Positions 1,851 to 52,055 are shown, counted from the stretch's first letter. The stretch is 64,000 bases of DNA from Eledone cirrhosa (GCA_964016885.1 OZ024742.1:258788001-258852000); one strand, 5' to 3'. Numbers and translations: made by a program. The notes: a model not told the origin generated them from the letters alone.

Positions 1851-1985
<135 letters not shown>

Positions 1986-5504: not shown

Positions 5505-5601
<97 letters not shown>

Positions 5602-6146
5602 GTGTATGTGGATGTGTATGTATGTGTATGTGTGTACACATGGACTAGAGTATGTATGTATATATGTGTGTGTCTATACGTGTGTATATATAAAGATAAG
5701 TTGAGTATGAAAATGTATACACATGAGCGCGTATGTATGTACATGAATACATGTGTGTATATATATGTGTATGCATGTGTATATATATGTAAGTATGAAT
5801 ATGTGAATTGTGAGTATATGTATTTTGTAGAGGTGTGCAAATATATTTGTGTGTGAATGCGTGGGTGAAAGAATACTACACTTGAAAGAAAAATTTAAGT
5901 CTGAATGTTAAGTGCAAACACAAAACCAACCACGCATATCTTTACTATCTCTAATCCTTCTATAGATTTAGAAAAATAACCAATAATATATTCTATAAAA
6001 AATGTCAAAACAACAGATGGGAATCTAATTACTCACTGCCACCAAGAATTCTCACTGCTATCGAAAAACCACTCCTTCAACTATTCTTCTAACAACTTCA
6101 CCCCTCCCTCCTAATATTCTCTATAAAAACTAAATAGGTCCTCAGT

Positions 6147-6270
6147 AATATTATTCTGATGAAATGACAGTAAATAATAACATTGAAATATTGAATGTCT
6201 GCATAACTAAAAGTTTGTAGATAGCTGTTTTAGGTTATGTAACTGTTATAGAAACACGTGTCAATAAATT
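6147..6270 (+). ncRNA. Hammerhead ribozyme with large branched helix II (3' pLTR copy)
   Basis: Same sequence as 2535-2658; CTGATGA at 6156, GAAA at 6251, GUC ending at 6262. Confidence 0.75.
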
Positions 6271-6420
6271 CCTTTCAACTAAACTGTATCCATTCAAATC
6301 TTTCTATATATATATATATATATATAGATAATTTAATATATCAACTAACATAAGCGCACAGATGCACGCCCATGCTAGCAAATACACAGGTTATGTCATA
6401 TATATATATATATATATTTA

Positions 6421-6745
6421 TATCAATGATATTAATAAATGGAAACTATATTTATAAAATGATATTTATTGTATTATATATATTTCAAGGGTACGAAAAC
6501 TTTGGTACGCTTTCATCAGATAAAATACAAAATTTGTTTTCTAAATATTGACATATCCATATGGATGGTCAAGTTTTACCTAAAAGCGTACCAAAGTTTA
6601 ATAGAATAAATATGGTTTTATAAATATTTTTTCCATTTATTAATATCATTGATATTATTATCCAGAAAACTTGTCGAGTGCTTCGAATCAGTTATAAATA
6701 TATAAATATTTGTTGTATTACCAACAAATTAAATATCCATTTGCT
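6421..6745. mobile_element. Palindromic mini-element, HHR family B (intact HHR on minus strand, 6464-6528)
   Basis: Minus: tattttat-CTGATGA-aag c gtac..gtac c ctt-GAAA-tatata-TA-atacaata; right arm internally deleted plus a tail; (TA)n flanks. Confidence 0.8.
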
Positions 6746-6851
6746 TATATATATATATATATTTTTTTTTTTTCAAAGGTATTTACTGAGTTAGGAACTC
6801 AAAATAGTCTTTTAAAACAAAATAGCTGTAAGAAAGAGATATTTTCGATAT

Positions 6852-7271
6852 AAAAGAAAAACGTACACAGATATATACATATATGTGTTCAAATCGTAAG
6901 GGACCAGATTCGCTAAGGTGAAAAGAATTGGCTGCTACGTTTAGTGTTGTAAGTTTGTGAGACGCGCTAGGATGCCATGTGCGCTATTCAGTTCCTTAAT
7001 ATACTTAGAAGTGTCTAGGATATTAATTCATCACCCACTGATGAGCTTGAATTGGTAATTCTATTCACAATTAACATTGCGAAACAACAACAAGTTGTGT
7101 GGGTGATTGGTAGTTACCACAATTACGGTTTGTATTTATTTTCTTGATTTTTTCTTAAATTGAGACAAGCAAACCCAATTCTCTATAGTTAGTATTCGTT
7201 TCACCTTAGCGAATCCGGTCCCTTACGATTTGTACACATATATGTATATATCTGTGTTTGATTTTTCTTTT
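6852..7271. mobile_element. Inverted-repeat element enclosing an HHR fold with a non-cleaving GUG triplet (7031-7106, +)
   Basis: Arms ~6852-6928 and ~7193-7271; tcaccca-CTGATGA-gc...gc-GAAA-caac aacaa gttg-TG-tgggtga. Confidence 0.7.
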
Positions 7272-7338
7272 GTACTGGGTAATTGCTGGCCTTGTGCCAA
7301 AAGTAAAAACAATTATAATATATATATATATATATATA

Positions 7339-7555
7339 TTGGTAAAAAGAAAAGAAGATGCTGACAAATTGTTCCCAGTGAAAAATAGTTTAATTAGGAA
7401 TAAGTAAAAATTAGTAATAAGTATGGGTTAGTATTCAGTTTTGGTTTTAGGTTTATTCCTAATTAAACTATTTTTCACTGGGAACAATTTGTCAGCATTT
7501 TCTCTTCCTTTTACCAATATATCACAACTCGTGTGTTACACCTCTATTCTTTTAT
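7339..7555. mobile_element. Palindromic fragment of the pLTR family seen at 48740-50430
   Basis: ttggtaaaa...gctgacaaattgttc...aattaggaata and its reverse complement, plus tail gtgtgttacacctctattc shared with ~50400. Confidence 0.75.
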
Positions 7556-7867
7556 ATATGTGAATAAAATTAGTCCTTCATCAGTGATCTCCAGCCTTCA
7601 TTGGCATTTCATCACTTATAAGATCATATACCTCTGGTTGGTGCGAGCAACGGCTAAAGAAAGTCGTTGGGACACGTAAATAGGGGGAACGAGCGAGACA
7701 GTAAACAAACATATATATATATATATATATAAGGAAAAAAAACATGGAAGAATGGCACAGTATATAACTGTACGTATAGGTACATATATATATAAACGTC
7801 ATTGGTGCACTAATATAATTTGTCCATGTGTATACTTGTGCATATGCATACATGTAGGTATATTATA

Positions 7868-8050
7868 TATTGGTGGATTGGCAGTATCAGTCCAACGCCA
7901 TGCTTTCCAGCATAGTTACGTCCCTTTACGGTCTGAATTCAAATTCCGCCGAGGTTATACTTTGCCTTTCATCCTTATGGGGTCGATAAAATAAAGTACC
8001 AGTAATATACTGGTAATTTGCTGGCCTTGTGCCAAAAGTAGAAACAATTA
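7868..8050 (+). mobile_element. tRNA-derived SINE (octopod type)
   Basis: A/B-box-like head, body ctttgcctttcatcct..ggggtcgataaaataaagtaccag, tail ggccttgtgccaaaagtagaaacaat; several other copies in the window. Confidence 0.8.
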
Positions 8051-8833
8051 TATATTGAGTTACAAACTCGAAATAGTCTTTTACAATTAAATAGCTCAAA
8101 GAAGGGAATATTTCCGAGCCGTGTAATACAAGTGAATATATGAGAGGGATGAACACTGATACAAGTATACATGTGTTCGAATTGCAAATTACCAAGTTAG
8201 CTGGGTTGAAAAATATTAATTTAAAATAGAAGAAAAAAATGTACATATATACATATATGCACATTTCCATGTATGTATATGTGCATATATGTATATATGT
8301 ACATGTGTATGTATTTATATATGCATGCATATATGTTTCTATGTATGTATCTATGTAAATTTGTATTTATGTATCTATGTTCTTGAATATAAGTAACATA
8401 TATCTAATTGTATATTTTAAAAGACGTAATATAACGCCAGTGCACTCTACATTCGTTGTCTTCATATATCAAATCGAATATTCCAGTTAACAGAGAAGAC
8501 AATGTGGTTGTTATTGATCTACTAAGATTATATCCTATTACTATTTTATAGCTATTCTTACTTCGAATGTTGAAATTGTTACGTATAAGTAAAATTAGCT
8601 ATTTGTCTTATACGTAATTATTTCTTTCTCAATATTTATGTTTTTCTTTGTAGATGTTCTTGGCGACAAACTCTACCAATTCATCCGTAGAAGCGGTAAA
8701 TTGGTATAATCATAAGAGGATTGAATATTATACTTTGCAGTTTTCATTCCGATATTCTGCGTTCGCAGTTCACATTCCGCCGTTCACATTCCGGCTTTGA
8801 CTTAAAAATAAATTATGTATATTCAGATAAATG

Positions 8834-8888
<55 letters not shown>

Positions 8889-9260
8889 AAATGAAGTAAT
8901 TCCATCGGAAAAGTCCAGGAAAAAAGAGTGCTCTATGTAAGCAACAGAGCTTAATTATTATTATTATGTAATAAACAACATAAGGCAATTATTCCATTTA
9001 CCAGTGGTTTCTTAAAAGCAAAAGGTTTTGCTTTCAATCCTCAGAATGAAAAATCCTGGTTTGTTTATTGAATATGGATTCTAAAAACGAAAATGCAATC
9101 TATATGAAAGTGAGGCTGGAAAAGGGAGAAGGAAAGGAAAAATAAAATAAAATAAAACTACACATGCAAACACACACAAAAAAACCCAAAAGCATACTTA
9201 CACACACACACATATATACACATATAATTTGCACGCATACACATATACACATACACATAC

Positions 9261-9311
<51 letters not shown>

Positions 9312-9412
9312 CACATACATACACATATATATATATAAAGAGCGTACACCTACACACACATACACATATATATACACACATATACACATACATATATTCA
9401 TACATACACACG

Positions 9413-9448
<36 letters not shown>

Positions 9449-9470
9449 TATATATACACATGTACATATC

Positions 9471-9510
<40 letters not shown>

Positions 9511-9961
9511 CATATACACACATATACACATATACATACACACACACACACACACACACACATGTGTGTGTACAAGCCTACACATACACACACACATATA
9601 TATACACACACATATACATACATTCACACAAACATACAACGTACATACATACACATACATGAATGCACTCCACTACATATTAACACACGCAAATAAATAT
9701 AAGAAAAAAATATATAAATAATATTAACAAATATTTGACAGCGATACATGCCCCAGCTAACAGGACAGACACGCGTGGTAAGTAATACACACATAAGCGC
9801 ATATACATACGTTCGAAATAGTAAACACATACACACACTCTCACACATAAATATACATATACAAATACATAAACACGTACATACACATACATACGCAAAC
9901 ACGTACACGTATACAATATAAACACACACATGTATATGTAATTATATACACACACACACAC

Positions 9962-10006
<45 letters not shown>

Positions 10007-10020
10007 CAAAAATATAAAAA

Positions 10021-11667
10021 TTAGATAACCGGATTGAAAGCTTAGCTAAGCGTAAAGCATATATTACCCTTAAAGACCATAAATTGGACTTTACTAATCG
10101 ACCTAGTTGTAGACTGATTAACCCGGCTAAATCCGAGGTTGGCCTTGCTAGTAAGAAAATCTTAAGAAAAATAATTATCCAAATTAGAACTAACACTGTC
10201 CTTTCACAGTGGCTAAATACTTCCTCTGTTATTTCTTGGTTCAATAATATACAAGGTAAAAATAAGTGTAGATTTACGCAATTTGATATTGTCGATTTTT
10301 ACCCTTCTATTACCGTTTCCTTATTAACTAAAGCCTTAGATTTTGCAAGACCCTTCATTAATATCTCCAAATTAGAAGAGGACATTATCTTTCATGCCAG
10401 AAAAACTTTACTTTTTACTAATGATAAGATTTGGGTTAAAAAGTCAAACCCTGAAAACTCTTTCGATGTTGCAATGGGTTCTTATGACAGTGCGGATGTG
10501 TGCGACTTAGTAGGATTATTCCTTCTCCACACACTCAAAGAGAAATTTCCGTCCCATAATATCGGTTTATACCGTGATGACGGATTAGCAGTTTCTCATA
10601 CCACCAATGGCCATAATCTTGATAAATTCCGTAAAGATTTAATTAGTACCTTTGCTAATCTTAACCTTAAAATTACTATAGATACGAACCTTACTAATGC
10701 TAACTTTCTTGATATTAATCTTGATCTACTTACTGCCTCTTTTAAACCCTATCATAAACCTAATGAAAATCTTAGGTATATACACAAAGAGTCTTGCCAT
10801 CCCCCTATAGTTTTTAATAATCTTATTCCTAACATTAGCCGTAGGATTTCTACTTTATCTTCGTCTATAGACATTTTTAATAAAGCCGCCCCTTATTATA
10901 ATAAAGCCCTTAAGAACAGCGGTTTTACAGAAAATATTTCTTATTTACCTATTCCCCCCCCTAAAACTAACCATAATAACAGGAAAAGGAAGATTATTTG
11001 GTTCACACCCCCCTTCTCTCTAAATGTCAAAACTAATGTAGGAAGGAAATTCCTTGAACTATTAGACAAACATTTTCCTCCTATTCATAGATATTATAAG
11101 ATTTTTAATAGGAATGTAGTTAAGATCAGCTACTCTTGTTGTCCATCCATGAAATCCAAAATCACCAGTTCAAACCGTACGAGGATAAATCCAGGATGCA
11201 GTTGCAGGAAGCCGGATGAATGCCCATTGCAGGGTAAATGTAAAACAAAATCTGTCGTTTATGAGGCTAAAATAACGCCAGTTATCAACAACCAGCCAGC
11301 CAGAAGCGAGCGATATGTCGGTATGACCCAGGACAGGTTTAAAACCAGATTTTACTCACATGTCGCTTCTTTTAAACACTCAGATAAACGAACATCAACA
11401 GCCCTCGCAAGTAAGGTATGGGATCTCAAGGATAGTAATATCCCGTACTCTATTGATTGGTCTATATTAGACCATTCGAGGGAGTACCAAAGGGGCACAA
11501 AGAATTGTTCTTTGTGTACCACAGAAAAGTATAGGATTTTGCTAAACTTGAGAGACACTTCCGCTTGCCTTAACTCTAAGACTGAGATCTTCAGATGCTG
11601 TCCTCATCTGAAATCGCATCTGATCTGTAACTGGATTGACACTCCTACGATAAATCAACCGCCTTGA
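10021..11667 (+). CDS. PLE RT + GIY-YIG, N-terminally truncated but open (no true start codon)
   Basis: Frame open from the junction (LDNRIE..LKDHK); [31 protein letters not shown], CSCx5CPx4C, VVY..YVG, CSLC..E, CPH. Confidence 0.88.
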
Positions 11668-11961
11668 ACTCCTTCTCTGCTCTTTACTTTTGCTACGGCT
11701 TTTATTTTGCTGCTTCTACCTTCTGTACTCTTGTATTTAAAAAATATTTTTTTCTCCCTTACCTCCCTTTATATTTTTACCTCCTCTAGGCCCCCCACCC
11801 CATATATTCTTTTTGTTTTGCCCTTCACATACCTATGTGTATGTGTATGTATTTTTGTGTGTATATATGTATATGTGTACGTATATGTTTGTGTATGTAT
11901 ATATATATGTGTATGTATGTATGTATATGTATGTGTGTGTATATGTGTGTATGTATATATG

Positions 11962-12001
<40 letters not shown>

Positions 12002-12067
12002 TGTATATATATATGTATATATATATATGTGTGTGTGCGTGTCTGTATGTGTGTATATATTTGTATA

Positions 12068-12126
12068 TTTCATTCTGAAGATTGAAGGAAACTTTTTTTG
12101 CTTTTAAGAAACCTCTGGTGAATGGA
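12068..12126 (+). ncRNA. Decayed second HHR copy in the PLE2 3' region
   Basis: ttcatt-CTGAAGA(12075)-...-GAAA-cctctgg-TG-aatgga; GUG triplet and weakened helix II. Confidence 0.65.
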
Positions 12127-12268
12127 TTAATTGCCTTGTATGGCTTTATTACTTTACTACTATATATACGTTTATGTAAGGTTCATTTGTCTTATCTAAT
12201 ACTGAGCTTTACACATACACACATGTATATGTGTGTGTGTATGTGTATGCATGTGTGTATGTGTACGT

Positions 12269-12302
<34 letters not shown>

Positions 12303-12583
12303 TTGTGTATATATATGTGTATATATATATATGTATATGTATATATGTATATATGTATATGTACGTGTATGTATGTATATGTTGCGTGTGTTTTTATTTA
12401 TTTTTATGTATGTGTGGGTTTGTGTGTGGGTGTGTGTGTGTGTATATATGTGTGTGTGTTTGTATTTGGTTGTGCGTTCTTTTGATATATACGTATTTGC
12501 ATGTGTATAATTGTTTAGCTATGTATGTATATGTGTGTTTACGTATTTATATGTGTGTGTGCGTTTATATTTTTATATTTTTG

Positions 12584-12630
<47 letters not shown>

Positions 12631-13081
12631 GTGTGTGTGTGTGTATATAATTACATATACATGTGTGTGTTTATATTGTATACGTGTACGTGTTTGCGTA
12701 TGTATGTGTATGTACGTGTTTATGTATTTGTATATGTATATTTATGTGTGAGAGTGTGTGTATGTGTTTACTATTTCGAACGTATGTATATGCGCTTATG
12801 TGTGTATTACTTACCACGCGTGTCTGTCCTGTTAGCTGGGGCATGTATCGCTGTCAAATATTTGTTAATATTATTTATATATTTTTTTCTTATATTTATT
12901 TGCGTGTGTTAATATGTAGTGGAGTGCATTCATGTATGTGTATGTATGTACGTTGTATGTTTGTGTGAATGTATGTATATGTGTGTGTATATATATGTGT
13001 GTGTGTATGTGTAGGCTTGTACACACACATGTGTGTGTGTGTGTGTGTGTGTGTATGTATATGTGTATATGTGTGTATATG

Positions 13082-13121
<40 letters not shown>

Positions 13122-13143
13122 GATATGTACATGTGTATATATA

Positions 13144-13179
<36 letters not shown>

Positions 13180-13280
13180 CGTGTGTATGTATGAATATAT
13201 GTATGTGTATATGTGTGTATATATATGTGTATGTGTGTGTAGGTGTACGCTCTTTATATATATATATGTGTATGTATGTG

Positions 13281-13329
<49 letters not shown>

Positions 13330-13539
13330 GTATGTGTATGTGTATATGTGTATGCGTGCAAATTATATGTGTATATATGTGTGTGTGTGTAAGTATGCTT
13401 TTGGGTTTTTTTGTGTGTGTTTGCATGTGTAGTTTTATTTTATTTTATTTTTCCTTTCCTTCTCCCTTTTCCAGCCTCACTTTCATATAGATTGCATTTT
13501 CGTTTTTAGAATCCATATTCAATAAACAAACCAGGATTT

Positions 13540-13599
13540 TTCATTCTGAGGATTGAAAGCAAAACCTTTTGCTTTTAAGAAACCACTGGTAAATGGAAT
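13540..13599 (+). ncRNA. Hammerhead ribozyme (3' pLTR of PLE2; inverted copy at 8991-9051)
   Basis: ttcatt-CTGAGGA(13546)-ttgaaagcaaaa cc ttttgcttttaa-GAAA-ccactgg-TA-aatgga. Confidence 0.85.
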
Positions 13600-13627
13600 A
13601 ATTGCCTTATGTTGTTTATTACATAAT

Positions 13628-13689
<62 letters not shown>

Positions 13690-14724: not shown

Positions 14725-14900
14725 GGAAAAGAATGAAACGAAATTTCATTTCTCACTCTTAGTACGGCTGGTACTTAAATGTAAGTATGTATGTATACGT
14801 ACATACATATATGTATACAGACGCACAGTAGTATGTATATATATACATACATATATGTACGTATGGGTTTAACGAACATTTATTATTATGCTCGGTTTGT
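14725..14900 (-). repeat. 3' fragment of family A (no HHR)
   Basis: Reverse complement of ~1245-1458. Confidence 0.8.
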
Positions 14901-14926
14901 TATATATATATATATATATATATAAA

Positions 14927-16660: not shown

Positions 16661-16864
16661 TGCCTCTCTAATTAGAACAACCTCTCTTGTCTCCCTTTTT
16701 GAAAATTTCTATTCTCCCTCCCGATTGCCATTGCTTAGAGACCCAGGCCATCGGGCACACACGAGTCACCGAGAGAATACCTTCATTATTTAAGGCATTT
16801 AAACATTTCCTGCCGATCATACACACATCCACACACACACACACACACACTTTCTTCTATCTTA

Positions 16865-17970
16865 ATATTTAATTTGAGCTTGTCTAGGGTCCTTCTCAAT
16901 ATGTAAGCTAGTTCGCCGCTAGGGTTGGTATTGACGAATATTACACTCTGGTAATTATTGCTATCATACCTTGAATTTATTTTATTTGCCTATTCCTAAT
17001 CCTTTGTTCCAAAATTTGCTCATATACATGCGCACAGTCCCCTTTGCAACATTTTCTACAATCTTTGTCCGAATTAGATATTAAGTTACTTGAAAGACCT
17101 GGTATTCCTGTAAAAAGCCTAATTAGTAGAGCATTCCCATTTCAAAGATCCCCCTCTGCTGATAGAAAATGCATAGTCTACATGCTAAGCCCACAAACTA
17201 GCTGCAAAACTACGAACGTAGTATATAGCATAAGATGTACTGAAGGACTGTCTAGGAATAATAATAGAATATACATAGGTGAAACAGCGCGTAGCATATA
17301 AGGAAGAATAGGTGAACACTGCTGAAATTTCAAGGATGGGAAAAAATCATCAGTACTCCACCAACATGCCAAAGTAGAACATAGGAACACATTAAAGAAC
17401 ATAGAGATAGAAATTATATCCACACACGAAAAGATACAATGCTCAGACAAATCACTGAGTCGACAAACATAAGCGAACTCCAACCAAAATTAAACATATT
17501 TTTAAGTAGAATAGCAACATCATAACTAGTAATTAGGGACAAAATGAAGATATACAGACACACACAAAAACCAAACTAATAAGATAAATCACACACACAC
17601 AGACAGAACAAACAACACTCTAATGGCAAGTAAATAAACACATAAATGAATTTAAAAAAACACACTCACACCCGGATATAATGCATGCACAAACTAAGCA
17701 TACAGCTTACAACACACAAAAACAAGATGGTGTAGGACAGAAAAAAGGAGAGACACAAAATAAAATCCTAGTTACTGAGGAGGTTACCGAATGTGTGACG
17801 AAAGATCTTTCACAATATATAAAGAACGTTTCCGGTTATCGAACCAACCAACCAACCAGCAATTTATAATAAATTGAAGTGAAAACCACAGATGCGTGTG
17901 ATTTTAACAATAACTGTTTCAACACAAGTTTTCAGATAATAAATCTTGCAAAACGATTTCAAAAACGGAG
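16865..17970 (+). mobile_element. Decayed PLE (family F): GIY-YIG + 3' UTR with a 5' inverted segment
   Basis: NVVYSIRC...IYIGETARS; homologous to ~60050-60900; 16870-17030 is the reverse complement of ~59905-60075; HHR-like core CTGAGGA(17775)..GAAA(17800). Confidence 0.8.
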
Positions 17971-18471
17971 CATATATATATATATATATACATACGGATA
18001 GTGGTATGCAGATACAAGTGCAGAAATATATATGGAGTAAAAGCACAAAAGAACATTACACACAAACACTCATGTCGCGAGTGCATAATACAATTTGTGT
18101 ATAACAGAGTGGGGGTAGAGTATTCAGGGCGGTGTATACAGGGTATACAAGTTCTTCCCAAGGTTGGTGCCGAAAGTGGCCACGCCCGTTTCACATGGAA
18201 AAGCTTTGTATTAGACTATATCTAGCACATATATGTTGCTAATTTGTATAGCCTTATGAAGGTTCAAGTTGAGCTATGGTGATGCACGAATAGGAGCACT
18301 TGTTTCTTTGCGCGCGGCATATCACAAAATCAGGTTTTCATCTGAAGATACCGTTCTCATAACAACAACAAATGCACAAATTACAACCGGGATTACATAA
18401 GAGAACCGTTGAAATTATTATTATGATAAACGATTCATGAAACACCAGCAGCACCTTTCTTCATGTCATCC

Positions 18472-19480: not shown

Positions 19481-20147
<667 letters not shown>

Positions 20148-27200: not shown

Positions 27201-27574
27201 GAGAGAGAGGAGAGGGTGAATGGGTACCAGATGTTTTCGTTACTTCCTAAACTAAACACCCGGCGATAGTGACGTAGGAACAAAACTGACCAACACTTCC
27301 GCTTACATCCTTAGGGTCATACAGGAGTCGGCCATCAAATAAACTATACCATGCGTTGTTCCGGTCTCCTGTATCATAAAATTATTGGATTTTTCCAAAT
27401 TTAATGGGTTTTTTAGGAGCTTTGAATGTTTATTTTAGGTTTTGCCGTCTGAAGAGCTTACGCTATCATAACTGATATAGACCGCAGTGTAATATGTATA
27501 ACAGAGTTTTAAATAAACCTGAATCAACTCAATATGGTCTTTGATCTGTTATTAATATACATATATATATATTA

Positions 27575-30500
27575 CTTCAAAATATTAATAAATCTAGACA
27601 TTCTTGTTATCAAATATATTTTATTATACATATTTCAGAGGTACTGAGCTATTTCATCAGTACGTCCTCATCAGATAAAATAAATTGATGTCTGATATAC
27701 CTCAACTGTGCTGATGGGTCAATTCCAGTCTTGGCAGTGATTATTTATAACAAAACTCAATATTCATATACCATAAGTTGTAACATGAACGACTACATAT
27801 ATTAGAGAGGGTACGTAGGAGAACGTGTATAAAAAATATATAATAATAAGTAATAAATATAATAAGTATATATAAAGGGGAGTAAAAATATAAACATATA
27901 ACTACATAACTGTTAAAAATTTAAATAATAAAAAATGTATACCTCCGTATAGGAACAAAAGAGAGAGCGAGAGAGTTAACTAGAGGAGAGAAAGAAAAGG
28001 AAAGAGAGATGATACTAAAAACAAAGGAAGGGAGTTATGTGTGGTAACATATAATTACATAAGGAGAAGGAGAGTCAAGTGTAAGATGCGTGTCCGTTTT
28101 TTTTTTTTCAAATATTAAGTTAATTAGAAATAATCAATTAATTAAATAATTTGAAATGTTTAGACTATAATATTTGAAACAACCTATATTATTGTATTAT
28201 ATCAAAATTAAAACAAATATATAGTGAAAAAGATAATTTAACATAATTCCAAGGGTAATCAAGAGTATATTTAAATTATTAAATATAGTCAATAATTTAG
28301 TTAGAAAGATCAAAATTAAAAATGTTATTAACTAACCATAAAGCTTATAAATGTAATAAATATGATATTATTAAACCAGATTTATTTAGATATAAGCATT
28401 TGTATAGTTCTTATATAAACTATTAGATTTAAATCAATATTTGTCAATATAAATAATATTAATTATTAGTTATAATTACACTTAAGAGTGTTATAATTTT
28501 GATTTAACCAGGTTTTACTGTATTCGAAATTATACATCAAGTTAAGTAGAGATAATTAATCAATTTAGATAAAACGAAACTTGTATACGATAAATGTAAA
28601 CAATATCTTCGTACGACGTAAACAAACATTCAAAGCAATTAAACGGTTTACGAGTCTGTATCAAATTTAAAAGATACAAAGTTTAAAAAATACAAAATCA
28701 AAGCTAAGTGTATTTAAACAATCTAGAGATTAACATATTCTATTAGAGAGCAGGTAAACAAAGTCTATGGTTAGGTAGAAACCTTATATCCATTATTAAT
28801 AATAGCAATAATAATAAAAGCATTACAAGAATTATTATTCAGAGTCAATATCATTTCACACTGGGAATTATTAATAAGAGTCAAAATCATTTCATATGAT
28901 ATCCTAATTTTATATGATGTTTGAAATGTAGATGCAGATTTGTGCAGGCAGTTTGAGAATAATTCACATTTTTGTTAATTAAATTACCATAATTAGCAAT
29001 TATTAATAGAGTCTCGGTATTGCAAATTTTGCAGTTAGGAGAAATAGAGCTATTTTGGTAGACTTGAGAGTTGCGAAGCTTGGACCAAAATATTGAGTAT
29101 TTTAAATTTTCCTCTTTTAAAGACCATATTAGTTGTGATAAAGAATTAGAAAATGTCTTATCCGGATTAGAAAAAGAATGCTTATGATTGGAAAATCTCA
29201 GTTTAAAGCTCGATGAAGTTGCACCTATGTAGTTGTAGGTAATGTTATTTGCTTTAACGGTACATTTATATACTAAGTTCTTATCAAGGCAGTTATTTTG
29301 CAAAGGGCAATCAGATCTACTTCTACAGTTACAGTTCGATTTCCTGTTATTACTATAATCTAAACTGTTCGCGTTATCATTGCTAATATTTATAGGTGTT
29401 CTACTGTAAGTGCTTAAATTAATGTTATTGTTATTCTCTGTATCAATATTATTGTTAATATTAATATCATCATTATCACTAATTATATGTTGGTTATAAC
29501 TAAGAATTCTGCTATTTATTGTTGCAATGTTTTGAGCCATATTCATAGTTGTAGAGTAAGATAGCTTAACTGTGTGTCTATTGAAGATATAATAGTATTT
29601 ATGTGTTCTAGGGAAACAGTTATCTAATGCCTTAAAAAAATAATTGTGCTAGGCGTGTTTTAATAGCTAAAGATGCTGGTGGTGCATACCAAATAACTGA
29701 TTTAGTTCTGATTTTTTCCAAGATTTATTCACGAAATTAGTATTTTTATTCATATTTAAATTATTCTTATTTTAGAGTCTGCTTTATTTATATTATTCTT
29801 ATTATTATTTAGTTCATAATTAGAATTACTATTATCTAGATATTCAATATTATTTTTATATCCTGCCTTATGCAACGCTTCATTATAATATGCAGCTTTG
29901 TTATCAAAAATGAATTTGTTAGCAGATAATCTAGTAAGACATTGTTGAACACTATTGACTATTGCATTTTTAACAGATTTAGGATGATAGGAATGAAAGC
30001 TAACATAATTTAGGTTTTCATTGGATTTATGGAAGGGGTAATATAGTCCTGAATTTAAATAAAGGGTGGCATCAAGGAAGTTAACCACTTTACTGTTACT
30101 TTCTACTTCTAATTTCAGGTCATGATTTTTAAAGAATTCTATAATTGCATTCTTAACCCTATTTAGTTCACTATTGCTATGTTTAACTACAGTAAATAAT
30201 ATATCATCCCTATATAAACCACCGGTAATCTCCGGCAACTTTCTATTTATCATATTAAGGATAACATTTCCCAGAAGATCGGTAATCTGCAGAGTCAGAC
30301 GATACCATAGTAGTGTCGAAATTGTTATGCCTATCAGAACGAGTACAAAAATCATCATTAAAATTAATCTGGGTTCTTCTAGCCGTTAATATGATATTAA
30401 TCTCCTCGCTAGATAGATATGTATGTTTATAAGCGTAAGATAAAGCCTTATTCAGGAGATTAGGTGTTATAGATGAGTAGTAACTCGTTATGTCCATTTG

Positions 30501-30690
30501 AATAAATTTATGATTTTTCTTATTTTCAATGTTCCTAAACCAATCTATTACTTCACTTGTGTCCTTCCATAAGCTCAGCTTTGACTTCAATTTCAATGTT
30601 GGAAAAATTCTATCTATAATATTTTTACTAATTCCAATGTCTGACTTAGAAGTCCTCTTCGAAATTTATTTTGTGATCTTTAAAATTTGT
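27575..30690 (-). mobile_element. Decayed, 5'-truncated Naiad-like PLE (PLE3)
   Basis: Frameshifted pieces 30255-30596 (QMDITSYYSSI), 29756-30358 (YRDD, FLD), 28887-29546 (CNCx5CPx4C, LVY..YIG, CKIC); 3' HHR at 27615-27684. Confidence 0.9.
27615..27684 (-). ncRNA. Hammerhead ribozyme at the PLE3 3' end (family B type)
   Basis: tattttat-CTGATGA-gga c gtactga..tcagtac c tct-GAAA-tatgta-TA-ataaaata. Confidence 0.85.
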
Positions 30691-30699
30691 CCGCGGCTG

Positions 30700-31459
30700 C
30701 CTTGGTACGTTCAACAATCAGGCAGGAAGGTATACGTTGCTGACGATAGCTAATAAGCTTGAAACTAGTTCAGAGTTCCTTTGTCAGTGTTGAACAAACG
30801 AGCAACGATAGTTGCTAGACACTACGGCTTAATACGGGATGTTTGTTTACAAACACATCGAGCATTATAATAAATGTTCGGTGAATCCATACGTACATAT
30901 ATATGTGTGCATGTATGTATATATATATACATACTACTGTACGTCTGTATACATATATGTATGTACGTGTACATACTTATATTTAAGTAACAGCCGTACT
31001 AAGAGTGGGAAATGACATTTCGTTTCATTATTTCCGTTTATCGTTTTCGATGCACCCGGCCGATTAACCCACTCGATATGCACATTGGGTTACTCAGACG
31101 TTAATATTCATAAGGTAAGTATATATGTTCAACAATCTGGCAGGAAGGTATACGTTACTGACGATAGCTAATAAGCTTGAAACTAGTAAAGCGTTACCTT
31201 GTCAGTGTTGAACAAACGAGCAACGATGGTTGCTAGACACTACGGCTTAATACGGGATGTTTGTTTACAAACACATCGAGCATTATAATAAATGTTCGGT
31301 GAATCCATACGTACATATATATATGTGTGCATGTATGTATATATATATACATACTACTGTACGTCTGTATACATATATGTATGTACGTGTACATACTTAT
31401 ATTTAAGTAACAGCTGTACTAAGAGTGGGGAGTGAAATTTCGTTTCATTTTTTCCGTTT
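30700..31459 (+). mobile_element. Family A tandem dimer (418-bp period) with two HHRs
   Basis: CTGACGA at 30740 and 31158, each followed by tagctaataagcttGAAActagt; ends in (TA)n. Confidence 0.85.
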
Positions 31460-31469
31460 ATATATATAT

Positions 31470-31586
<117 letters not shown>

Positions 31587-31937
31587 GTATAAACAATGTT
31601 TCGACATGTATATGAGACCATTTCTTTCGGGTCCAGTTATGGCTACTAATGTATATTGGAGGAGGCACTTTTCAACTGATTGGACTTTCATTCCTGAACG
31701 TGGACAGATATATGAAATGGGAAATAGTTTTCCTCGACTATTTTTTCTCCAAACAGTGAAGATCTTCATATTTGAAAATTGTCAGTAAGCTATTTTTTCA
31801 AGTTTCATTGGTTGTTTTGATTTTCGTCTCCACGAGCGACTTCTGAATTTATCAGTTATTTTGTAAATATCTAAAGTAATTAAGGTAAATTATATCAGAT
31901 AAACATATAAATAATTATAAATAATTATATATACATG

Positions 31938-32226: not shown

Positions 32227-32260
<34 letters not shown>

Positions 32261-32264
<4 letters not shown>

Positions 32265-35200
32265 AATATAGACATAGAATATTCGAAAATATTCTGTATG
32301 TTTATAATAAACATTTTGAAGACCTAATCGCTATAGAATAGAATACGTCACGTATTACAATTAGATTCTCGATAAAAGCAAGGGAAGTAATCTACGCGTT
32401 TCATTCTTATTAGAAATCTTCAGGACTACATATCCAGTGCTTTTATCGAGAATGACACAGCTAGAGACTTATAGAATACTTAGCTGTGTACAGAAACTGG
32501 TTTGAAAGAGCGGTTGCCGGTCCGGCAGAAATTAGAAATTGGAATAAATGCTCTGAAATAGCGATATATATGTGAATATAGACATAGAATATTCGAAAAT
32601 ATTCTGTATGTTTATAATAAACATTTTGAAGACCTAATCGCTATAGAATAGAATACGTCACGTATTACAATTAGATTCTCGATAAAAGCAAGGGAAGTAA
32701 TCTACGCGTTTCATTCTTATTAGAAATCTTCAGGACTACATATCCAGTGCTTTTATCGAGAATGACACAGCTAGAGACTTATAGAATACTTAGCTGTGTA
32801 CAGAAACTGGTTTGAAAGAGCGGTTGCCGGTCCGGCAGAAATTAGAAATTGGAATAAATGCTCTGAAATAGCGATATATATGTGAATATAGACATAGAAT
32901 ATTCGAAAATATTCTGTATGTTTATAATAAACATTTTGAAGACCTAATCGCTATAGAATAGAATACGTCACGTATTACAATTAGATTCTCGATAAAAGCA
33001 AGGGAAGTAATCTACGCGTTTCATTCTTATTAGAAATCTTCAGGACTACATATCCAGTGCTTTTATCGAGAATGACACAGCTAGAGACTTATAGAATACT
33101 TAGCTGTGTACAGAAACTGGTTTGAAAGAGCGGTTGCCGGTCCGGCAGAAATTAGAAATTGGAATAAATGCTCTGAAATAGCGATATATATGTGAATATA
33201 GATATAGAATATTCGAAAATATTCTGTATGTTTATAATAAACATTTTGAAGACCTAATCGCTATAGAATAGAATACGTCACGTATTACAATTAGATTCTC
33301 GATAAAAGCAAGGGAAGTAATCTACGCGTTTCATTCTTATTAGAAATCTTCAGGAAATCTGCCGGACCGGCAACCGCTCTTTCAAACCAGTTTCTGTACA
33401 CAGCTAAGTATTCTATAAGTCTCTAGCTGTGTCATTCTCGATAAAAGCACTGGATATGTAGTCCTGAAGATTTCTAATAAGAATGAAACGCGTAGATTAC
33501 TTCCCTTGCTTTTATCGAGAATCTAATTGTAATACGTGACGTATTCTATTCTATAGCGATTAGGTCTTCAAAATGTTTATTATAAACATACAGAATATTT
33601 TCGAATATTCTATGTCTATATTCACATATATATCGCTATTTCAGAGCATTTATTCCAATTTCTAATTTCTGCCGGACCGGCAACCGCTCTTTCAAACCAG
33701 TTTCTGTACACAGCTAAGTATTCTATAAGTCTCTAGCTGTGTCATTCTCGATAAAAGCACTGGATATGTAGTCCTGAAGATTTCTAATAAGAATGAAACG
33801 CGTAGATTACTTCCCTTGCTTTTATCGAGAATCTAATTGTAATACGTGACGTATTCTATTCTATAGCGATTAGGTCTTCAAAATGTTTATTATAAACATA
33901 CAGAATATTTTCGAATATTCTATGTCTATATTCACATATATATCGCTATTTCAGAGCATTTATTCCAATTTCTAATTTCTGCCGGACCGGCAACCGCTCT
34001 TTCAAACCAGTTTCTGTACACAGCTAAGTATTCTATAAGTCTCTAGCTGTGTCATTCTCGATAAAAGCACTGGATATGTAGTCCTGAAGATTTCTAATAA
34101 GAATGAAACGCGTAGATTACTTCCCTTGCTTTTATCGAGAATCTAATTGTAATACGTGACGTATTCTATTCTATAGCGATTAGGTCTTCAAAATGTTTAT
34201 TATAAACATACAGAATATTTTCGAATATTCTATGTCTATATTCACATATATATCGCTATTTCAGAGCATTTATTCCAATTTCTAATTTCTGCCGGACCGG
34301 CAACCGCTCTTTCAAACCAGTTTCTGTACACAGCTAAGTATTCTATAAGTCTCTAGCTGTGTCATTCTCGATAAAAGCACTGGATATGTAGTCCTGAAGA
34401 TTTCTAATAAGAATGAAACGCGTAGATTACTTCCCTTGCTTTTATCGAGAATCTAATTGTAATACGTGACGTATTCTATTCTATAGCGATTAGGTCTTCA
34501 AAATGTTTATTATAAACATACAGAATATTTTCGAATATTCTATGTCTATATTCACATATATATCGCTATTTCAGAGCATTTATTCCAATTTCTAATTTCT
34601 GCCGGACCGGCAACCGCTCTTTCAAACCAGTTTCTGTACACAGCTAAGTATTCTATAAGTCTCTAGCTGTGTCATTCTCGATAAAAGCACTGGATATGTA
34701 GTCCTGAAGATTTCTAATAAGAATGAAACGCGTAGATTACTTCCCTTGCTTTTATCGAGAATCTAATTGTAATACGTGACGTATTCTATTCTATAGCGAT
34801 TAGGTCTTCAAAATGTTTATTATAAACATACAGAATATTTTCGAATATTCTATGTCTATATTCACATATATATCGCTATTTCAGAGCATTTATTCCAATT
34901 TCTAATTTCTGCCGGACCGGCAACCGCTCTTTCAAACCAGTTTCTGTACACAGCTAAGTATTCTATAAGTCTCTAGCTGTGTCATTCTCGATAAAAGCAC
35001 TGGATATGTAGTCCTGAAGATTTCTAATAAGAATGAAACGCGTAGATTACTTCCCTTGCTTTTATCGAGAATCTAATTGTAATACGTGACGTATTCTATT
35101 CTATAGCGATTAGGTCTTCAAAATGTTTATTATAAACATACAGAATATTTTCGAATATTCTATGTCTATATTCACATATATATCGCTATTTCAGAGCATT

Positions 35201-35519
35201 TATTCCAATTTCTAATTTCTGCCGGACCGGCAACCGCTCTTTCAAACCAGTTTCTGTACACAGCTAAGTATTCTATAAGTCTCTAGCTGTGTCATTCTCG
35301 ATAAAAGCACTGGATATGTAGTCCTGAAGATTTCTAATAAGAATGAAACGCGTAGATTACTTCCCTTGCTTTTATCGAGAATCTAATTGTAATACGTGAC
35401 GTATTCTATTCTATAGCGATTAGGTCTTCAAAATGTTTATTATAAACATACAGAATATTTTCGAATATTCTATGTCTATATTCACATATATATCGCTATT
35501 TCAGAGCATTTATTCCAAT
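32261..35519. mobile_element. Retrozyme-like tandem array, 310-bp unit with one HHR per unit; ~3.5 units antisense then ~7 units sense
   Basis: Units start 32261, 32571, 32881, 33191; inversion at ~33356; plus-strand cores at 33464, 33774, 34084, 34394, 34704, 35014, 35324; (TA)n flanks; no ORF of 60 aa or more in the track. Confidence 0.92.
33434..33522 (+). ncRNA. Type I hammerhead ribozyme of the 310-bp unit (representative copy)
   Basis: gtagtc-CTGAAGA-t ttct aata agaa t-GAAA-cgcg-TA-gattac; helix I extended by 16 bp attctcgataaaagca/tgcttttatcgagaat; cleavage predicted after 33494. Confidence 0.92.
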
Positions 35520-36639: not shown

Positions 36640-38115
36640 GCTCTGAGATGTAAAGGTTCGTACGTATTCATGATCATTGGTGAACTGTGATGTTAATTTG
36701 TGTGCATGTGTGGCCTGCTCGTTGAGGAGTACAAGAGAGGAGTAGTGCCATCGTAGATTCAGGAAGTCTGATGTTGTCTTGGGGCTTCCATTTGAATAAA
36801 AAGTGGGTCTTTTGATACAAGCAAGATCTGAATATTTCTGTATTGAGTTGAGGTATATATCCGGCGATTATAAAACCTATAATAGTATTGCGTGGACTTT
36901 TCCAACACTTTCCATATGATGTCTTTCGGTAATCACTTTTCTATTAGTTGCCAAACAATTTGTGCCAGTGCTGATTTTCGTGGGGGGATCTGTAACTGAG
37001 GTATTATGCAATAAAAATATCTGTATAAAATGCTCCTGGACCAAACCTATATATAGTTCGTGGTTCTCTATTTGTATGAGTTTTTGTATTTGATCTCTGC
37101 TTCGTATATTGAGGACTTAACATTACATTTTTGTGGTAATGGACAGTCGTCATTCCTCCTGAAATAGCACCTGGATGTTCCTGTGTTTTTTTTCTTTGCA
37201 CTCAATCTGGATTTCATGAATGTAAAGTAACAATAGGTAATTCTCGCCGAACGTCGATTAAAGATCTTCCTGATTCTATGTTAAGGGGGAGAGTGCTTAT
37301 CGATAAGGTCTAAGAGTTTCTTAACTATATTAGTTTTTACATTTAGTGAGAAAGGAGGTGCAAGCCAGATTACTTTTCTTTTTCTATTGTTATTTCTAGG
37401 CGAGTGTCTATTAGTTATGTATTCGATCTGTTCCTTAAATCCACTGTCTCTGAAGGCATGTTATAGTATGGTGCTGCTTTTCAAGTATCTCTCTGCTGGA
37501 TGATAAGTTCGAGATTCTACGGCTAATGTTGGTTACTAGATTTTTAAAAACCTATATGGGTGACATGGTCCTCTGTTGTTGTATTTCAGCTTCTCGATGG
37601 GTTTATATGTGCATGCTGGTAGGTCCCGGTTGACGTTGAGGAAGTTTGAGCTAGTGATGTTCGTGTTGATCGTGATTTTAAAGCCTAGGGCGTGAAATAT
37701 GCTTATCATATCTTTACGGAACTTGACCATATCGTGCCTGTTGTGGTCGTAGTCCAAAATAGGACCGTGGTCGCGGTACAGATCGATGGTCTGGTCGTAG
37801 AATGTCTGCTTAAGCGTATGGAGAATGTATAATCCAACAAGATTACATACATCAGAGCAGTTGAATGTCCACATCGAGACGTCCAATGAAATATATGTGT
37901 CGGATCTTTTTTACTCAAACGGTGTCATTGTTCAAGAAAGGCGTATTCGTGCGTGGTAAATAAGGTCGAGTTCTCGGTTACAGATAGCTCCGAAGGTACT
38001 TCAGAAGTATATAGCCTTGCCTAGTAGTGTTTTAGTGATAGAATGGTAAAATTCGGTTACATCAAACTGCCTTAACTTAGGCCTCGCTTTGGATGGGATG
38101 TCTTTGAACAAGGAA
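36640..38115 (-). pseudogene. Heavily decayed Naiad-like PLE ORF related to PLE2
   Basis: DVCNLVGLYILHTLK..LYRDHG..KFRKDMIS..KITINTN..NFL aligns by eye with PLE2; [18 protein letters not shown] at ~37330-37385. Confidence 0.8.
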
Positions 38116-38349
38116 ATCTGAACCCATTTGAACCCATTTCATGTCTGATCACATGCTCGAATGAAGGGCCAGTTCAAGAGAGCTTCCTCCAATGTACAGT
38201 GGTGGCCACAACTGGAACCCGACGCCAATGGTCAGGCTTGCTTCTTAAGTGTATGAAACTTACTTTATACTACGAAAGCTTTCTTTCAATATATTGAGCA
38301 CTCTTTTCCCTGGTCTTTCATCTACAGATTTCTGCACACACACACACAC

Positions 38350-39639: not shown

Positions 39640-40955
39640 CCAAAAAATCATGCGCACCTGAGAGATTTCCCTTGAATTTATTATAAATTTCCATTCAGAT
39701 AGTTTAATAACCAGACTGTAATTTCTTTGTCCTTGATTGTTAAAGCTGTTTTGTCACACATTCTGTGACCTCTTCAATGAATTGTTTTGAGTTATTTTTT
39801 ATGTCTTCTTTGTTCTACCCTGCCCCATTTTGCCGTGTACTTGGGCTGCGCATGCGTTCTTTCGAGGTTTGTGATTGTGGGTGTTTGTTTGTGTGTGTTT
39901 GTGTGTGTGTTGATTTATTTGTTTATGTATCTATCTATTTATCTATTTTAATATATTTATTTGTTGATATATTTATACATTTATTTATTGTTGGTTAGTT
40001 TTTCTATCTATGTTGGTCTAGTTTGTTTTATTAGTTTAGTTTTTGTGTGTTTCTGTATATCATTATCTTCTCTTTAGTCATCAGCTGTGAGGTTGTAGTC
40101 ATTGCACTCATGTTTTCTCTTTAGTTTTACTTGTGGTTTGTTTAAGTTCGCGGCTTCTGGAATCTGTCGGAGTCTGTTTTGCGTGTGGATATAATTTTTA
40201 TCTCGACATTCTGTAGTGTACTCCCATGTTCAATTCTGGCATTTTGGTGGAGTACTGAAGAGATGTATACGTCTTGGGGTTATCGCTAGTGTTCTTTTAT
40301 AATTTTCCCTATCTACGAAAGTCGCTTTCCTATACCTACACTGTCTCTCCTTAAATCTCATGCTATATAATACGTTCCTAGTTTTACAGATAATTGGTGG
40401 CCTTAATTTGCAGAATATACATTTCCTACCACTGCATGAGATTTTCTCTAAAGAGTATCTTCTTCTAATTAGAGCTTTTATGAGATTACCTGGTTTTTCT
40501 ACAATCTTAATATTTCATTTTATTCTTTATAGGGAGCTTGTAAATATATATGCTAGTTCGGCTATGGGGGTTGCATCGACGAGCATTACTCTCTGATCTT
40601 TGCTGGTATCATACCATGAGTTGATCTTATGTCTTCTATCCTATTCCAAAATTTACTCCTGTACATGGGGTAAGTCCGATTCAGATCATTTTCAAAAATC
40701 TTCATCCATTTGGCCCAAACTCCTTTATACACGCTGATCCTGCCTTTCTGATTGTAGCCAGAGATCGGCATGCAATGGATGAATTGTTGTACGCGACTCT
40801 CTAATTCATTAGGATCGCACATGCGGGATCACACATGAAATCCAACAGATGTGTGTTCTTCTATTGGAAGCATGACCCTCCCAAAGTATAAAAATAACCG
40901 TCTCAACAGATGTTTTCAGATAAGTAATCTTGCAAAACATATACAATTACGGAAC
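39640..40955 (-). mobile_element. Decayed PLE family F copy with short inverted pLTR piece (~40835-40955)
   Basis: YPMYRSKFWNRIE shared with the 59875 ORF; 3' UTR reverse-complementary to 60560-60900. Confidence 0.8.
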
Positions 40956-41580
40956 ATATACATAAATAAATATGTATATATATATATATATATATACATA
41001 TTTGTATAAAGCTATGCTTGAAGCGAAATACTATTTATATATATATAGGGGATCGAAATTTATACGAGGTTGACTTTTACACTAATGCATACAGAATGTG
41101 TTAGTTTAAAAGTCAACCTCCTATACATTTCGATCCCATATTAAGGTCCCAAATCTGCAATTTTCGACATTATTCATTCACATGTAACAGATCAACTTTT
41201 AGATTCAAGGGTTTATGACAAACATGAATGTTACAATCTAGAATGATTTTCATTGCATCTTATGGATAACTGTTTTCATGTACCATCGCTCACAATTTTA
41301 AAACATCTGACAGATGTCTTAACATTCATTAAATTATCAACCTCTATACTAGTGAGATATAATGTATATCACATCATTATTTCTCCTATGTAATTCACTA
41401 CATTCATTTACTTCCCCTTGATTATTCTTATCGTCGGAAGAAGAGATATTAATCTCGAAATATCAGGACAAATGAATAAGTTAAGGTAAAAAAAGAATCC
41501 CTGTTTCTTAAGATTTAATTATTCTCGGCCCAAGCCCGCATTATTGTTGCTTTCAAACTTCGAATTTCTTTATATATATA

Positions 41581-46164: not shown

Positions 46165-47445
46165 TATAAAAAAGACGTAAAATAAGAAAATTATAGTCAT
46201 TAACTTACTTAATTAAATTTCACTCCTACTAATTAGTTTCTGAAAGGGGATATACATATTCTTCAAATGGAAACCATGGAGAATCCTTTCTTCATCAAGG
46301 AGACATTCTCGTCTAATATTCCTGGCAATACGCGGACACAGGGAACTTATACAAAAATAATTCAGTGGATGGAAAAAAGCAAGCGCAGAATATTTTCACT
46401 GCCTTCCTGGTCAGTGGCAAATTCAAAAGAATCAATCACGTGACATCGAGGTTAATCAGTGAGGAGTAGGGTGTTAAAAAGACAGTAGCCAAACTAATAC
46501 TATGAACCAAAATAATTTAGAGATAATTATAAAGAATTAGTATATCTGATTGATTCTTTTGAACTTGCCACTGACCAGGAAGGCAGTGAAATTTTCAATG
46601 TCTTGGAATTTAGTCCGGGCTTGCTTTTTTCCATCCACTGAATTATTTTTGTGTAACTTCCCTGTGTCCGGGTATTGCCAGGAATCCTAGCCAAGAATGT
46701 CTCTCTGATGAAGAAAGGATTCTCCATGGTCTCAGAAACTAATTAGTTGGAGTGAAATTTAAGCAAGTAAGTTAATTACTATAATTTTCTCATTTTAAGT
46801 CTTTTATATAATTGTTCTACATCTCTTTGTATTGAACCACAAAGTTACTAAGACAAAACCTATATCTTTGCTAGCTTAAGTATACATCTGTATATAAATA
46901 TGTTGGTAGATATACTAATTCTTTATAATTATCTCCAAATCATTTTGTTGAGCACAATTTGCCTGAATTACTACTATGATTCATAGTATTAGTTTGGCTA
47001 CTGTCCTTTTAACACCCCACTCCTCACTGATTAACCTCGATGTCACGTGATTGGTTCTTTTGAATTTGCCACTGACCAGGAAGGCAGTGAAATTTTCAAT
47101 GTCTAGGAATTTAGTCCGCGCTTGCATTTTTCCATCCACTGAATTAATTTTGTATAAGTTCCCTGTGTCCGCGTATTGCCAGGAATCTTAGCCAAAAATA
47201 TCTCCCTGATGAAGAAAGGATTCTCCATGGTCTCCAAGTGAAGACTATGTATATCCCCTTTCAGAAACTAATTAGTTGGAGTGAAATTTAAGTAAGTAAG
47301 TTAATTACTATAATTTTCTTATTTTACGTCTTTTATATAATTGTTCTACATCTCATTGTATTGAACCACAAGGTTACTAAGACAAAACCTATATCTTTGC
47401 TAGCTTAAGTATACATCTGTATAAATATGTTGGTAGATATACTTA
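46165..47445. mobile_element. Inverted + tandem HHR element (one antisense copy, two sense copies ~500 bp apart)
   Basis: Best HHR: ctcc-CTGATGA(47206)-a gaaagg..catggtct..agactatg..cctttc a-GAAA(47264)-ctaattag-TT-ggag; copy at 46705 has a helix II deletion; antisense copy ~46223-46305. Confidence 0.85.
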
Positions 47446-47447
47446 TT

Positions 47448-47530
<83 letters not shown>

Positions 47531-51367: not shown

Positions 51368-51500
51368 TATAACAAATGGAAACTATATTTATAAAACCAT
51401 ATCTATTATATTATACATATTTCAAGGATACCATGTTAAATTATGGTATGCTTTCATCAGACAAAATACAATATATACCAGTTTTATAAATAAACATTGA
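51368..51500 (-). ncRNA. Family B solo arm with intact HHR (51404-51468)
   Basis: tattttgt-CTGATGA-aag c ataccat..atggtat c ctt-GAAA-tatgta-TA-atataata. Confidence 0.8.
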
Positions 51501-51594
51501 CGTACCCTTTCAAAATGCAACCGTTACTTTTGGAAGACATCAAGGATATATATATACATGGATATATATATATATACATGATATATATATATAC

Positions 51595-52055
51595 ATGATA
51601 ATGAATAAATGGAAACTATATTTATAAAACCATATTTATTTTATTAATATATTTCAAGGGCAATCAAGCCAACCTTGGTGCGCTTTCATCAGATAAAATA
51701 CAAAGTTTGTTATATAAATAAAGACATACCCATGAAAGTCATACCTTATCGGACGGAAATTCACTGGATAGTCACTATCCAGTCACCATCCAGTGAATTT
51801 CCGACCGATGAGGTATGATTTTCATGGTTATGTCTTTATTTATAAAACAAACTTTCTATTTTATCTGATGAAAGCGCACCAAGGTTGGCTTGATTGCTCT
51901 TGAAATATATTAATAAAACAAATATGGTTTTATATATATAGTTTCCATTTATTTAATATCACGGAATATTTACCCTGTAATCTGTTGAGTGTTCTAAATC
52001 AGTTACACACATTTATGTTTATCAGAATTCCAACAAATTAAATACAACTTCTACA
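51595..52055. mobile_element. Palindromic mini-element, HHR family B, two HHR cores
   Basis: Arms ~51595-51770 and ~51787-51962 plus tail; cores at 51686-51692(-) and 51865(+). Confidence 0.85.

Follow-up and report, generated by a model that had tools for sequence, protein, structure and literature searches.

The ~3.9-kb composite insertion described here lies in a 64,000-nt stretch of the Eledone cirrhosa genome (GCA_964016885.1 OZ024742.1:258788001-258852000; hereafter the window), which is AT-rich and holds many microsatellites and Penelope-like elements (PLEs), with PLE sequence making up about one third of it. The minus-strand half of the composite is PLE3, a decayed PLE with Hydra-clade motifs (27573-30706), and the plus-strand half is a stretch of 1.8 units (335+420 bp, period 418-420) of a type I hammerhead repeat that we call family A. 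The halves meet head to head with neither TA nor filler at the join, and their 3' ends point outward into TA tracts, each at the normal 3' end of its family (Table 1). An earlier note on this DNA had described a minus-strand PLE cut within its reverse transcriptase (RT), followed with no (TA)n between by a plus-strand family A arm of ~418-bp period, the whole bounded by TA tracts. This outline stands, although the tracts are unequal in length and two details change: the truncation, placed at ~30690, lies at 30706|30707 according to tblastn and the loose ends of sequencing reads, and the supposed dimer falls short of two units.

The two halves and their junction

Table 1. Coordinates, strand and basis of the features of the composite and its borders
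Feature	Position	Strand	Description	Basis
Neighbouring different hammerhead repeat, 3' end	27449..27553	+	core 27449-27498, 9 stem I pairs; depth up from ~27415	relaxed scan
Left TA tract	27555..27572	.	short, imperfect; pure (TA)5 at 27562-27571	
PLE3 3' untranslated region and terminal repeat	27573..28910	-	between protein-homology end and TA tract; GC ~24% over 27575-28900	
PLE3 type I hammerhead	27615..27684	-	core 27633-27674; ~50 nt from 3' end; fold z -1.8	motif scan
PLE3 coding remnant	28911..30706	-	RT (5' limit just upstream of KDHK), thumb, CxCx5C linker, GIY-YIG (YIG) nuclease, CxxC, CxH	tblastn, motif census
Junction	30706..30708	.	loose ends at 30707	loose ends; start of tblastn high-scoring segment pair at 30708
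Family A unit 1	30707..31041	+	5'-truncated, 335 bp; core 30740-30770, changes at 30770 and in stem I (30774)	
Family A unit 2	31042..31461	+	full 420 bp; core 31158-31188, first stem I pair mismatched (31157/31189)	
Right TA tract	31459..31591	.	133 bp	Tandem Repeats Finder

Four of the seven sequencing runs listed (X1, X4, X5 and X6) were aligned to the locus, the right flank lying outside the aligned stretch. Statements about the runs refer to the top rows of each listing, namely 15 of 82 joints, 24 of 1,975 loose ends, 16 of 13,605 pieces and 40 of 641 variant rows, picked by support. Depth is summed over contigs and does not equal copy number; the share of X4 was small (0.05), and its aligned pieces alone were used.

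Searching with the window's PLE1 (tblastn) recovered five pieces of PLE3 across 30708-28911, in changing frames, with homology to PLE1 and PLE2 in both the RT and the GIY-YIG nuclease. The most 5' of these pieces, VPRQPRTNFKDHKINF (30708-30652), aligns to PLE1 residues 190-208, the KDHK motif included. Since this homology reaches the join, the truncation of PLE3 lies just upstream of KDHK. Loose ends fall exactly at 30707 in all four runs and, among those listed, continue into the upstream sequence of family A. Up to 2 nt (30707-30708) may be common to both halves; an attempt to settle such microhomology from homologues failed, the residue at the join being variable. No read or contig among the listed pieces bridges the junction, so that the join itself is taken from the assembly. 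On its left side the composite is bounded by the terminal TA tract of a neighbouring hammerhead repeat, which lies tail to tail with PLE3.

The frame is broken at least four times in the coding remnant of PLE3 (near 30651, 30287, 29640-29756 and 28968). The remnant matches Pfam RVT_1 at an E value of 0.0012, which falls short of the curated cut-off, and has 11 relatives at E<=1e-20, the best at 49%. An X4 contig spans 30511-30703 with 6 differences and no gap, so the 23-nt gap that we place near 30651 may predate the insertion, and the PLE3 RNA may itself have been a defective passenger. The Hydra clade has been defined by a CxCX5C linker upstream of a C-terminal GIY-YIG domain, by CxxC and CxH, and by RWK and DKT (PMC8557442). 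The linker (CNCRSRSDC) and YIG occur in P0001, CxxC appears as CKIC, and CxH appears as CLH in a shifted frame (28965-28936). The N-terminal RWK and DKT motifs have been truncated off PLE3; they are present in the window's PLE1, and DKT occurs in 5 of the 11 homologues. The canonical hammerhead, whose stem II is long and whose stem III contains UAUG, and the (TA)n target also match what is described for the clade. Judged by its motifs, PLE3 would belong to the Hydra clade.

The last 160 bp of PLE3 are ~80-500 times deeper than the rest of the element, with a summed depth of 254,000 in X1 (bin 27578-27740); record 7 of X1 bridges 27660-27840, and record 9 of X4 begins at 27578, in line with the family's usual 3' end. 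From this excess we read a large family of short derivatives that share the 3' end of PLE3. Three other places in the window (6398-6560, 19752-20109 and 51370-51961) have ends 71-75% similar to that of PLE3. Not one of 192 candidate stretches for the PLE3 fragment P0003 was confirmed in metagenome contigs.

In the hammerhead of family A, stem II is 4 bp long and helix III is a single pair that carries a CUAG tetraloop, so that it is unlike that of PLE3, as the earlier note had held; its two cores in the composite lie 418 bp apart. When aligned, all three window copies of family A stop at the same base, just before TA. The repeat has a GC content of 0.36, its whole unit folds with z -6.8 (none of 100 shuffles is as stable), and none of 17 PLE protein queries has a tblastn match in 30700-31460. 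Its tandem form is seen in X1 joints that skip one unit. Stem I is completely paired only in the window copy with its core at 1127-1157; both composite units are mismatched there, and no hammerhead fold is obtained for unit 1 (z +0.4). At gathering score Rfam gave no match in the whole window, so the hammerhead calls are made from motif and pairing. The 39 Rfam e-value matches in 27300-31700 were discarded, being all below cut-off and mostly microRNA models on TA/TG-rich hairpins, with no hammerhead among them. The core pattern of family A had no match in metagenome contigs or in viral contigs.

Tandem, non-coding and self-paired, with GC below 45% and a core in each unit, family A would act like a non-LTR retrozyme. 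It resembles animal non-LTR retrozymes in its tandem non-coding units, its GC content, its type I core per unit and the strong self-pairing of the unit (PMC7229834; 10.64898/2026.07.22.740005), and its helix III, a single pair capped by a palindromic tetraloop, recalls amphibian satellite hammerheads (PMC7229834). Its unit of 418-420 bp is slightly above the 170-400 nt that the same paper gives for retrozymes.

Units 1 and 2 differ by 14 substitutions in 335 aligned bases (4.2%), all outside a 184-bp centre (P 1.7e-4); the centre (30811-30994 and 31229-31414) is free of substitutions, and 14 of the remaining 151 sites differ. In the centre both units share five states unlike the copy at 958-1457, and conversion, or a shared or mosaic donor, is the likely cause of this uniformity. 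Dating of the arm by the divergence between units was dropped, given that the uniform centre suggests such conversion or a shared donor. The copy at 958-1457 comprises 1.1 units with a 45-bp terminal direct repeat and has the best-paired hammerhead. It ends 3' at TA, and its 5' end abuts non-TA DNA; the sequence upstream (1-960) contains no hammerhead core and no PLE homology.

Independence and ages of the two halves

PLE3 does not include family A. A blastn comparison with all of PLE3 gave nothing better than E 0.16, and the similarity of family A to the last 326 bases of PLE3 was not significant (11 of 500 shuffles score equally). Depth changes 35- to 1000-fold across the join, from 590 to 631,000 in X1, from ~15 to 9,800 in X5, from ~12 to 9,700 in X6 and from 9.5 to 332 in X4. 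Within family A the summed depth in X1 is 495,000-729,000, against 9-10 in perfect flank contigs. We therefore consider it highly improbable that family A is an upstream repeat or internal part of PLE3-family elements, or that the join is an assembly error. In Xenopus, retrozyme families often match PLE pseudo-long terminal repeats (pLTRs; 10.64898/2026.07.22.740005), and the lack of a bridging read among the listed pieces would fit an error of assembly; yet family A lies in the opposite orientation, bears no similarity to the 3' end of PLE3, and begins where the PLE3 reading frame is cut. Moreover, the listed loose ends at 30707 all run on into family A, and close by the assembly resolves identical 310-bp arrays and long TA tracts.

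The ages of the halves were compared through their divergence from family relatives. In 30304-30419, 7 of 116 PLE3 sites are unlike nearly all aligned copies, and comparison with X4 contigs shows 6 differences in 193 sites and 8 in 158. Units 1 and 2 of family A carry 6 and 8 private substitutions, polarised with the 958 copy, in the 151 bp outside the centre, and unit 2 differs from at least 94% of reads or depth at 5 of 83 further sites. Both halves are thus ~3-6% from their relatives, with outliers at 11-16%, and very different ages are not seen, within a wide error. Similarly divergent pieces occur for both, with 4 differences and 4 gaps in 181 for PLE3, and 9 in 153, 3 in 94, and 6 with 4 gaps in 75 for family A. 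The young elements of the window (PLE1, PLE2 and the 310-bp array) are unlike the composite halves in having no substitutions between their repeats, and across the window the arm divergence of insertions runs from 0% to more than 15%. The absence of window alleles from X1 at many PLE3 sites, together with a word share of 0.45, had been considered a sign of insertion polymorphism; this was dropped because contigs lose rare variants, the filter removes records, and the rows were selected by support. Three X6 reads carry window alleles at 30069, 30074 and 30086.

Insertion patterns in the window and in the runs

Eight of the 15 listed joints connect opposite strands within family A, each being present in both RAD runs. 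The short sides of these joints match the distance to read-end hot spots at 31017 and 31084-31086, and from these read-end positions we infer that they are head-to-head self-arms. Family A therefore likely inserts in a two-armed manner, as do the PLEs of the window. One arm begins at 30712-30756, adjoining 30707, in six of the eight, a weak post hoc clustering (P ~0.005, assuming 63 of 246 bases visible). Among the other listed joints, one connects opposite strands within the end of PLE3 and five lie on one strand within the family A array.

A hand tally covered 18 window insertions whose ends could be placed and which carry a hammerhead core or a PLE frame; the loci at 27449, 16850-17994, 39999-40992, 58838-61017, 25374, 45864 and 53285, as well as TA-rich palindromes, were left out because their ends or cores could not be placed. 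Eleven of the 18 have their own inverted arm (1629, 6414, 6849, 8956, 14924, 19752, 32254, 46165, 51596, 56249 and 58134), and the inner joins of self-armed insertions lack TA, as at this locus. Four have TA at the 5' end (PLE1, PLE4, family A at 14725-14901, and 51370-51546), two have the 5' end on unrelated non-TA DNA (family A at 958 and PLE5 at 38117), and the remaining one is the composite. When 17 minus-strand cores were each paired automatically with the plus-strand core that follows, this locus (2 rows) and six self pairs without TA came out. The same pairing gave two dissimilar pairs without TA (17328/17775 and 40050/40255, spanning 17328-17803 and 40050-40320), for which the motif is loose and which may be chance.

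Two young insertions show the self-armed arrangement, their 3' ends facing outward onto TA and their inner joins free of it. PLE2 (8956-13634) has an open frame of 549 codons and its own inverted arm of 1068 bp, with no substitution in 1064. Its 5' end lies 18 codons upstream of KDHK, and that of PLE3 lies 9 codons upstream, possibly because copying tends to stop in this region (n=2). The other, the 310-bp hammerhead array (32254-35519), consists of two head-to-head arrays of 3.6 and 7 units that are 99-100% identical and separated by a filler of 2 nt; it is a very young two-armed retrozyme-like insertion. The hammerhead loop II of this repeat matches that of family A, and the similarity of the whole units is marginal.

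Other elements complete the picture of the window. PLE1 (1972-6307) looks almost complete in length; its direct repeats agree at every base over 716 bp, and it has one in-frame stop at 3658-3660 and no inverted arm. PLE4 (61094-63388) has an open frame of 764 codons with RVT_1 and GIY-YIG above the Pfam cut-offs and TA at its 5' end; its CX4CxxC linker places it in a PLE clade other than that of PLE1-3. At 46165-47454, TA tracts enclose a further hammerhead repeat, partly in tandem and carrying an inverted arm of its own. PLE5 (36807-38117, minus strand) is older and Hydra-like, is cut in the RT at 38117, and adjoins without TA a repeat at 38111-38330 that is 73% like 31616-31721, a second copy that begins 24 bp beyond the TA tract at 31591. 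PLE5 and its neighbour are flanked on their outer sides by microsatellites; the neighbour has no clear hammerhead core, and we infer its polarity. The pair may be a second, older cross-family composite, or just an example of joining by successive insertions.

Origin and meaning of the composite

The reading we favour, which we consider about evenly balanced between right and wrong, is that of a single integration, the RNA used for priming being that of PLE3 on one target strand and that of family A on the other. A PLE enzyme would have cut both strands of one TA tract; each of the two ends would then have been extended on its own template, PLE3 RNA for one and family A RNA for the other, and both outer ends would be priming sites. 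Family A would have been copied from multimeric or circular RNA, through one unit boundary, and the two complementary DNAs would have stopped at 30706 and 30707 before being joined end to end, with both halves decaying in place by a few percent afterwards. In its favour, the geometry of the locus matches that of the young self-armed insertions, PLE2 and the 310-bp array; family A stops at one and the same base before TA in all three window copies and likely makes two-armed insertions by itself, and the ages of the halves overlap. Biochemical background is provided by Poseidon, whose purified PLE protein cuts and extends both target strands, is predicted to form a dimer, and initiates inside its RNA without target homology (PMC11167929). 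Twin priming has been invoked to explain L1 chimeras with other RNAs in antisense (PMC13174262). At this locus the protein may have come from the PLE3 family or from another PLE.

Several observations weigh against a single event. Being a single locus, the composite is a candidate footprint of a PLE mobilising a retrozyme, and not proof; the TA target hides target duplications, and the aligned run pieces contain no empty allele or orthologue, the right flank lying outside them. The match in age is loose and too weak to establish one event, being based on the listed variant rows, and more divergent pieces exist on both sides (17 of 152 for PLE3; 10 of 92, 12 of 74 and 12 of 73 for family A); both families may just have spread in the same period. 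The tally of insertions makes self-arms the rule (11 of 18), and non-TA 5' joins form without any recognised second hammerhead arm. With PLEs making up so large a share of the window, chance adjacency is not rare. The 15 listed joints include no second head-to-head join of PLE3 and family A, and the one cross-family joint among them, from family A to the PLE3 end, is tail to tail (31402 to 27617).

The strongest contender is that two elements inserted successively in one TA tract, and that the TA between them, with any original arm, was lost, or that a later microhomology deletion produced the join; we regard this as a serious possibility, if one somewhat likelier to be wrong than right. The first element would have been one-armed or self-armed, and the second would have been primed in the TA tract on the 5' side of the first, with its own 5' end joined at the tract edge or through a target deletion that removed the TA. 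Stacking of elements in each other's TA tracts is evident here, the left bound being the TA tail of a third hammerhead repeat, and the tail-to-tail joint just mentioned is of the same kind. One-armed insertions are present in the window, the family A copy at 958 and PLE5 both have 5' ends joined to unrelated non-TA DNA, and family A is very abundant and, had it arrived second, would equally explain the start near 30707. On the other hand, successive insertions require total loss of TA at the join, when TA is kept in four of the six other one-armed insertions, and they require similar ages in a window whose insertions differ widely in arm divergence. The earlier note suggested that the locus would be a direct footprint of trans mobilisation, with the place of the inverted arm filled from a different RNA. 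The arm is indeed unrelated to PLE3, but a direct footprint of one event is too strong a claim, as successive insertion with loss of TA gives the same picture.

It is unlikely that two concurrent primings at separate TA tracts were joined head to head with the intervening DNA deleted or rearranged, an event that would also combine complementary DNAs of two RNAs, though from separate cut sites. Two-tailed bridges of two L1 RNAs have been described for concurrent L1 events in tumours (10.1101/2024.08.27.596794). The flanks of the composite are unrelated repeats and its TA tracts are very unequal (18 against 133 bp), as separate tracts might be; there is, however, no sign of rearrangement within the window. 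Tract lengths also shift by slippage, which counts against reading the inequality as a mark of two tracts.

An inverted copy of the element itself is standard for PLEs (PMC8557442; PMC3846280), and the origin of such arms was called still undefined in PMC8557442. The composite resembles the endonuclease-positive PLE insertions with an inverted 5'-truncated copy that these sources describe, with a truncated body, an arm opposite at its 5' end, a 3' hammerhead and (TA)n, but differs from them in that the second arm comes from an unrelated family and is not a copy of the element. The composite is therefore shaped like this class without being a standard member of it. Trans-mobilised sequences of Adineta sit between the element's own pLTRs, whereas the foreign part here has its own 3' end at the target. 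Antisense L1 chimeras and two-tailed L1 bridges are alike in having two RNAs in opposite orientation joined at their 5' ends (PMC13174262; 10.1101/2024.08.27.596794); unlike them, the locus involves the GIY-YIG class of PLE enzyme and a TA target, and has no poly(A). The L1 cases are backed by target duplications and cross-species timing, whereas the composite is known from one assembled locus.

Mobilisation of retrozymes by PLEs has been argued on indirect evidence, from co-occurrence, tandem form and similarity to pLTRs (PMC7229834; 10.64898/2026.07.22.740005), and the parts of these two papers covered contain no composite or two-armed retrozyme insertion. Our literature search found no description of a PLE insertion with a cross-family arm, coverage being thin for subscription papers, including early papers on PLE structure.

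In general terms, PLE enzymes would prime each strand of the TA target independently and could load different RNAs, the inverted arm being the second complementary DNA, made from a second RNA, and abundant retrozyme RNA could fill this place in trans; we advance this tentatively, as falling slightly short of an even chance. Were it true, the process would have left a fossil in this locus and perhaps another at 38117, in PLE5 and its neighbour, and cross-family composites could be counted genome-wide. Self-armed insertions cannot tell a second arm made from the same RNA from one made from another RNA, but cross-family arms can. If the class is real, it would connect a PLE clade and a retrozyme family that can both be named, and provide a countable genomic test. 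Whichever reading holds, family A resembles Hydra-type PLEs in ending at TA tracts and in joining to itself across opposite strands in population reads.

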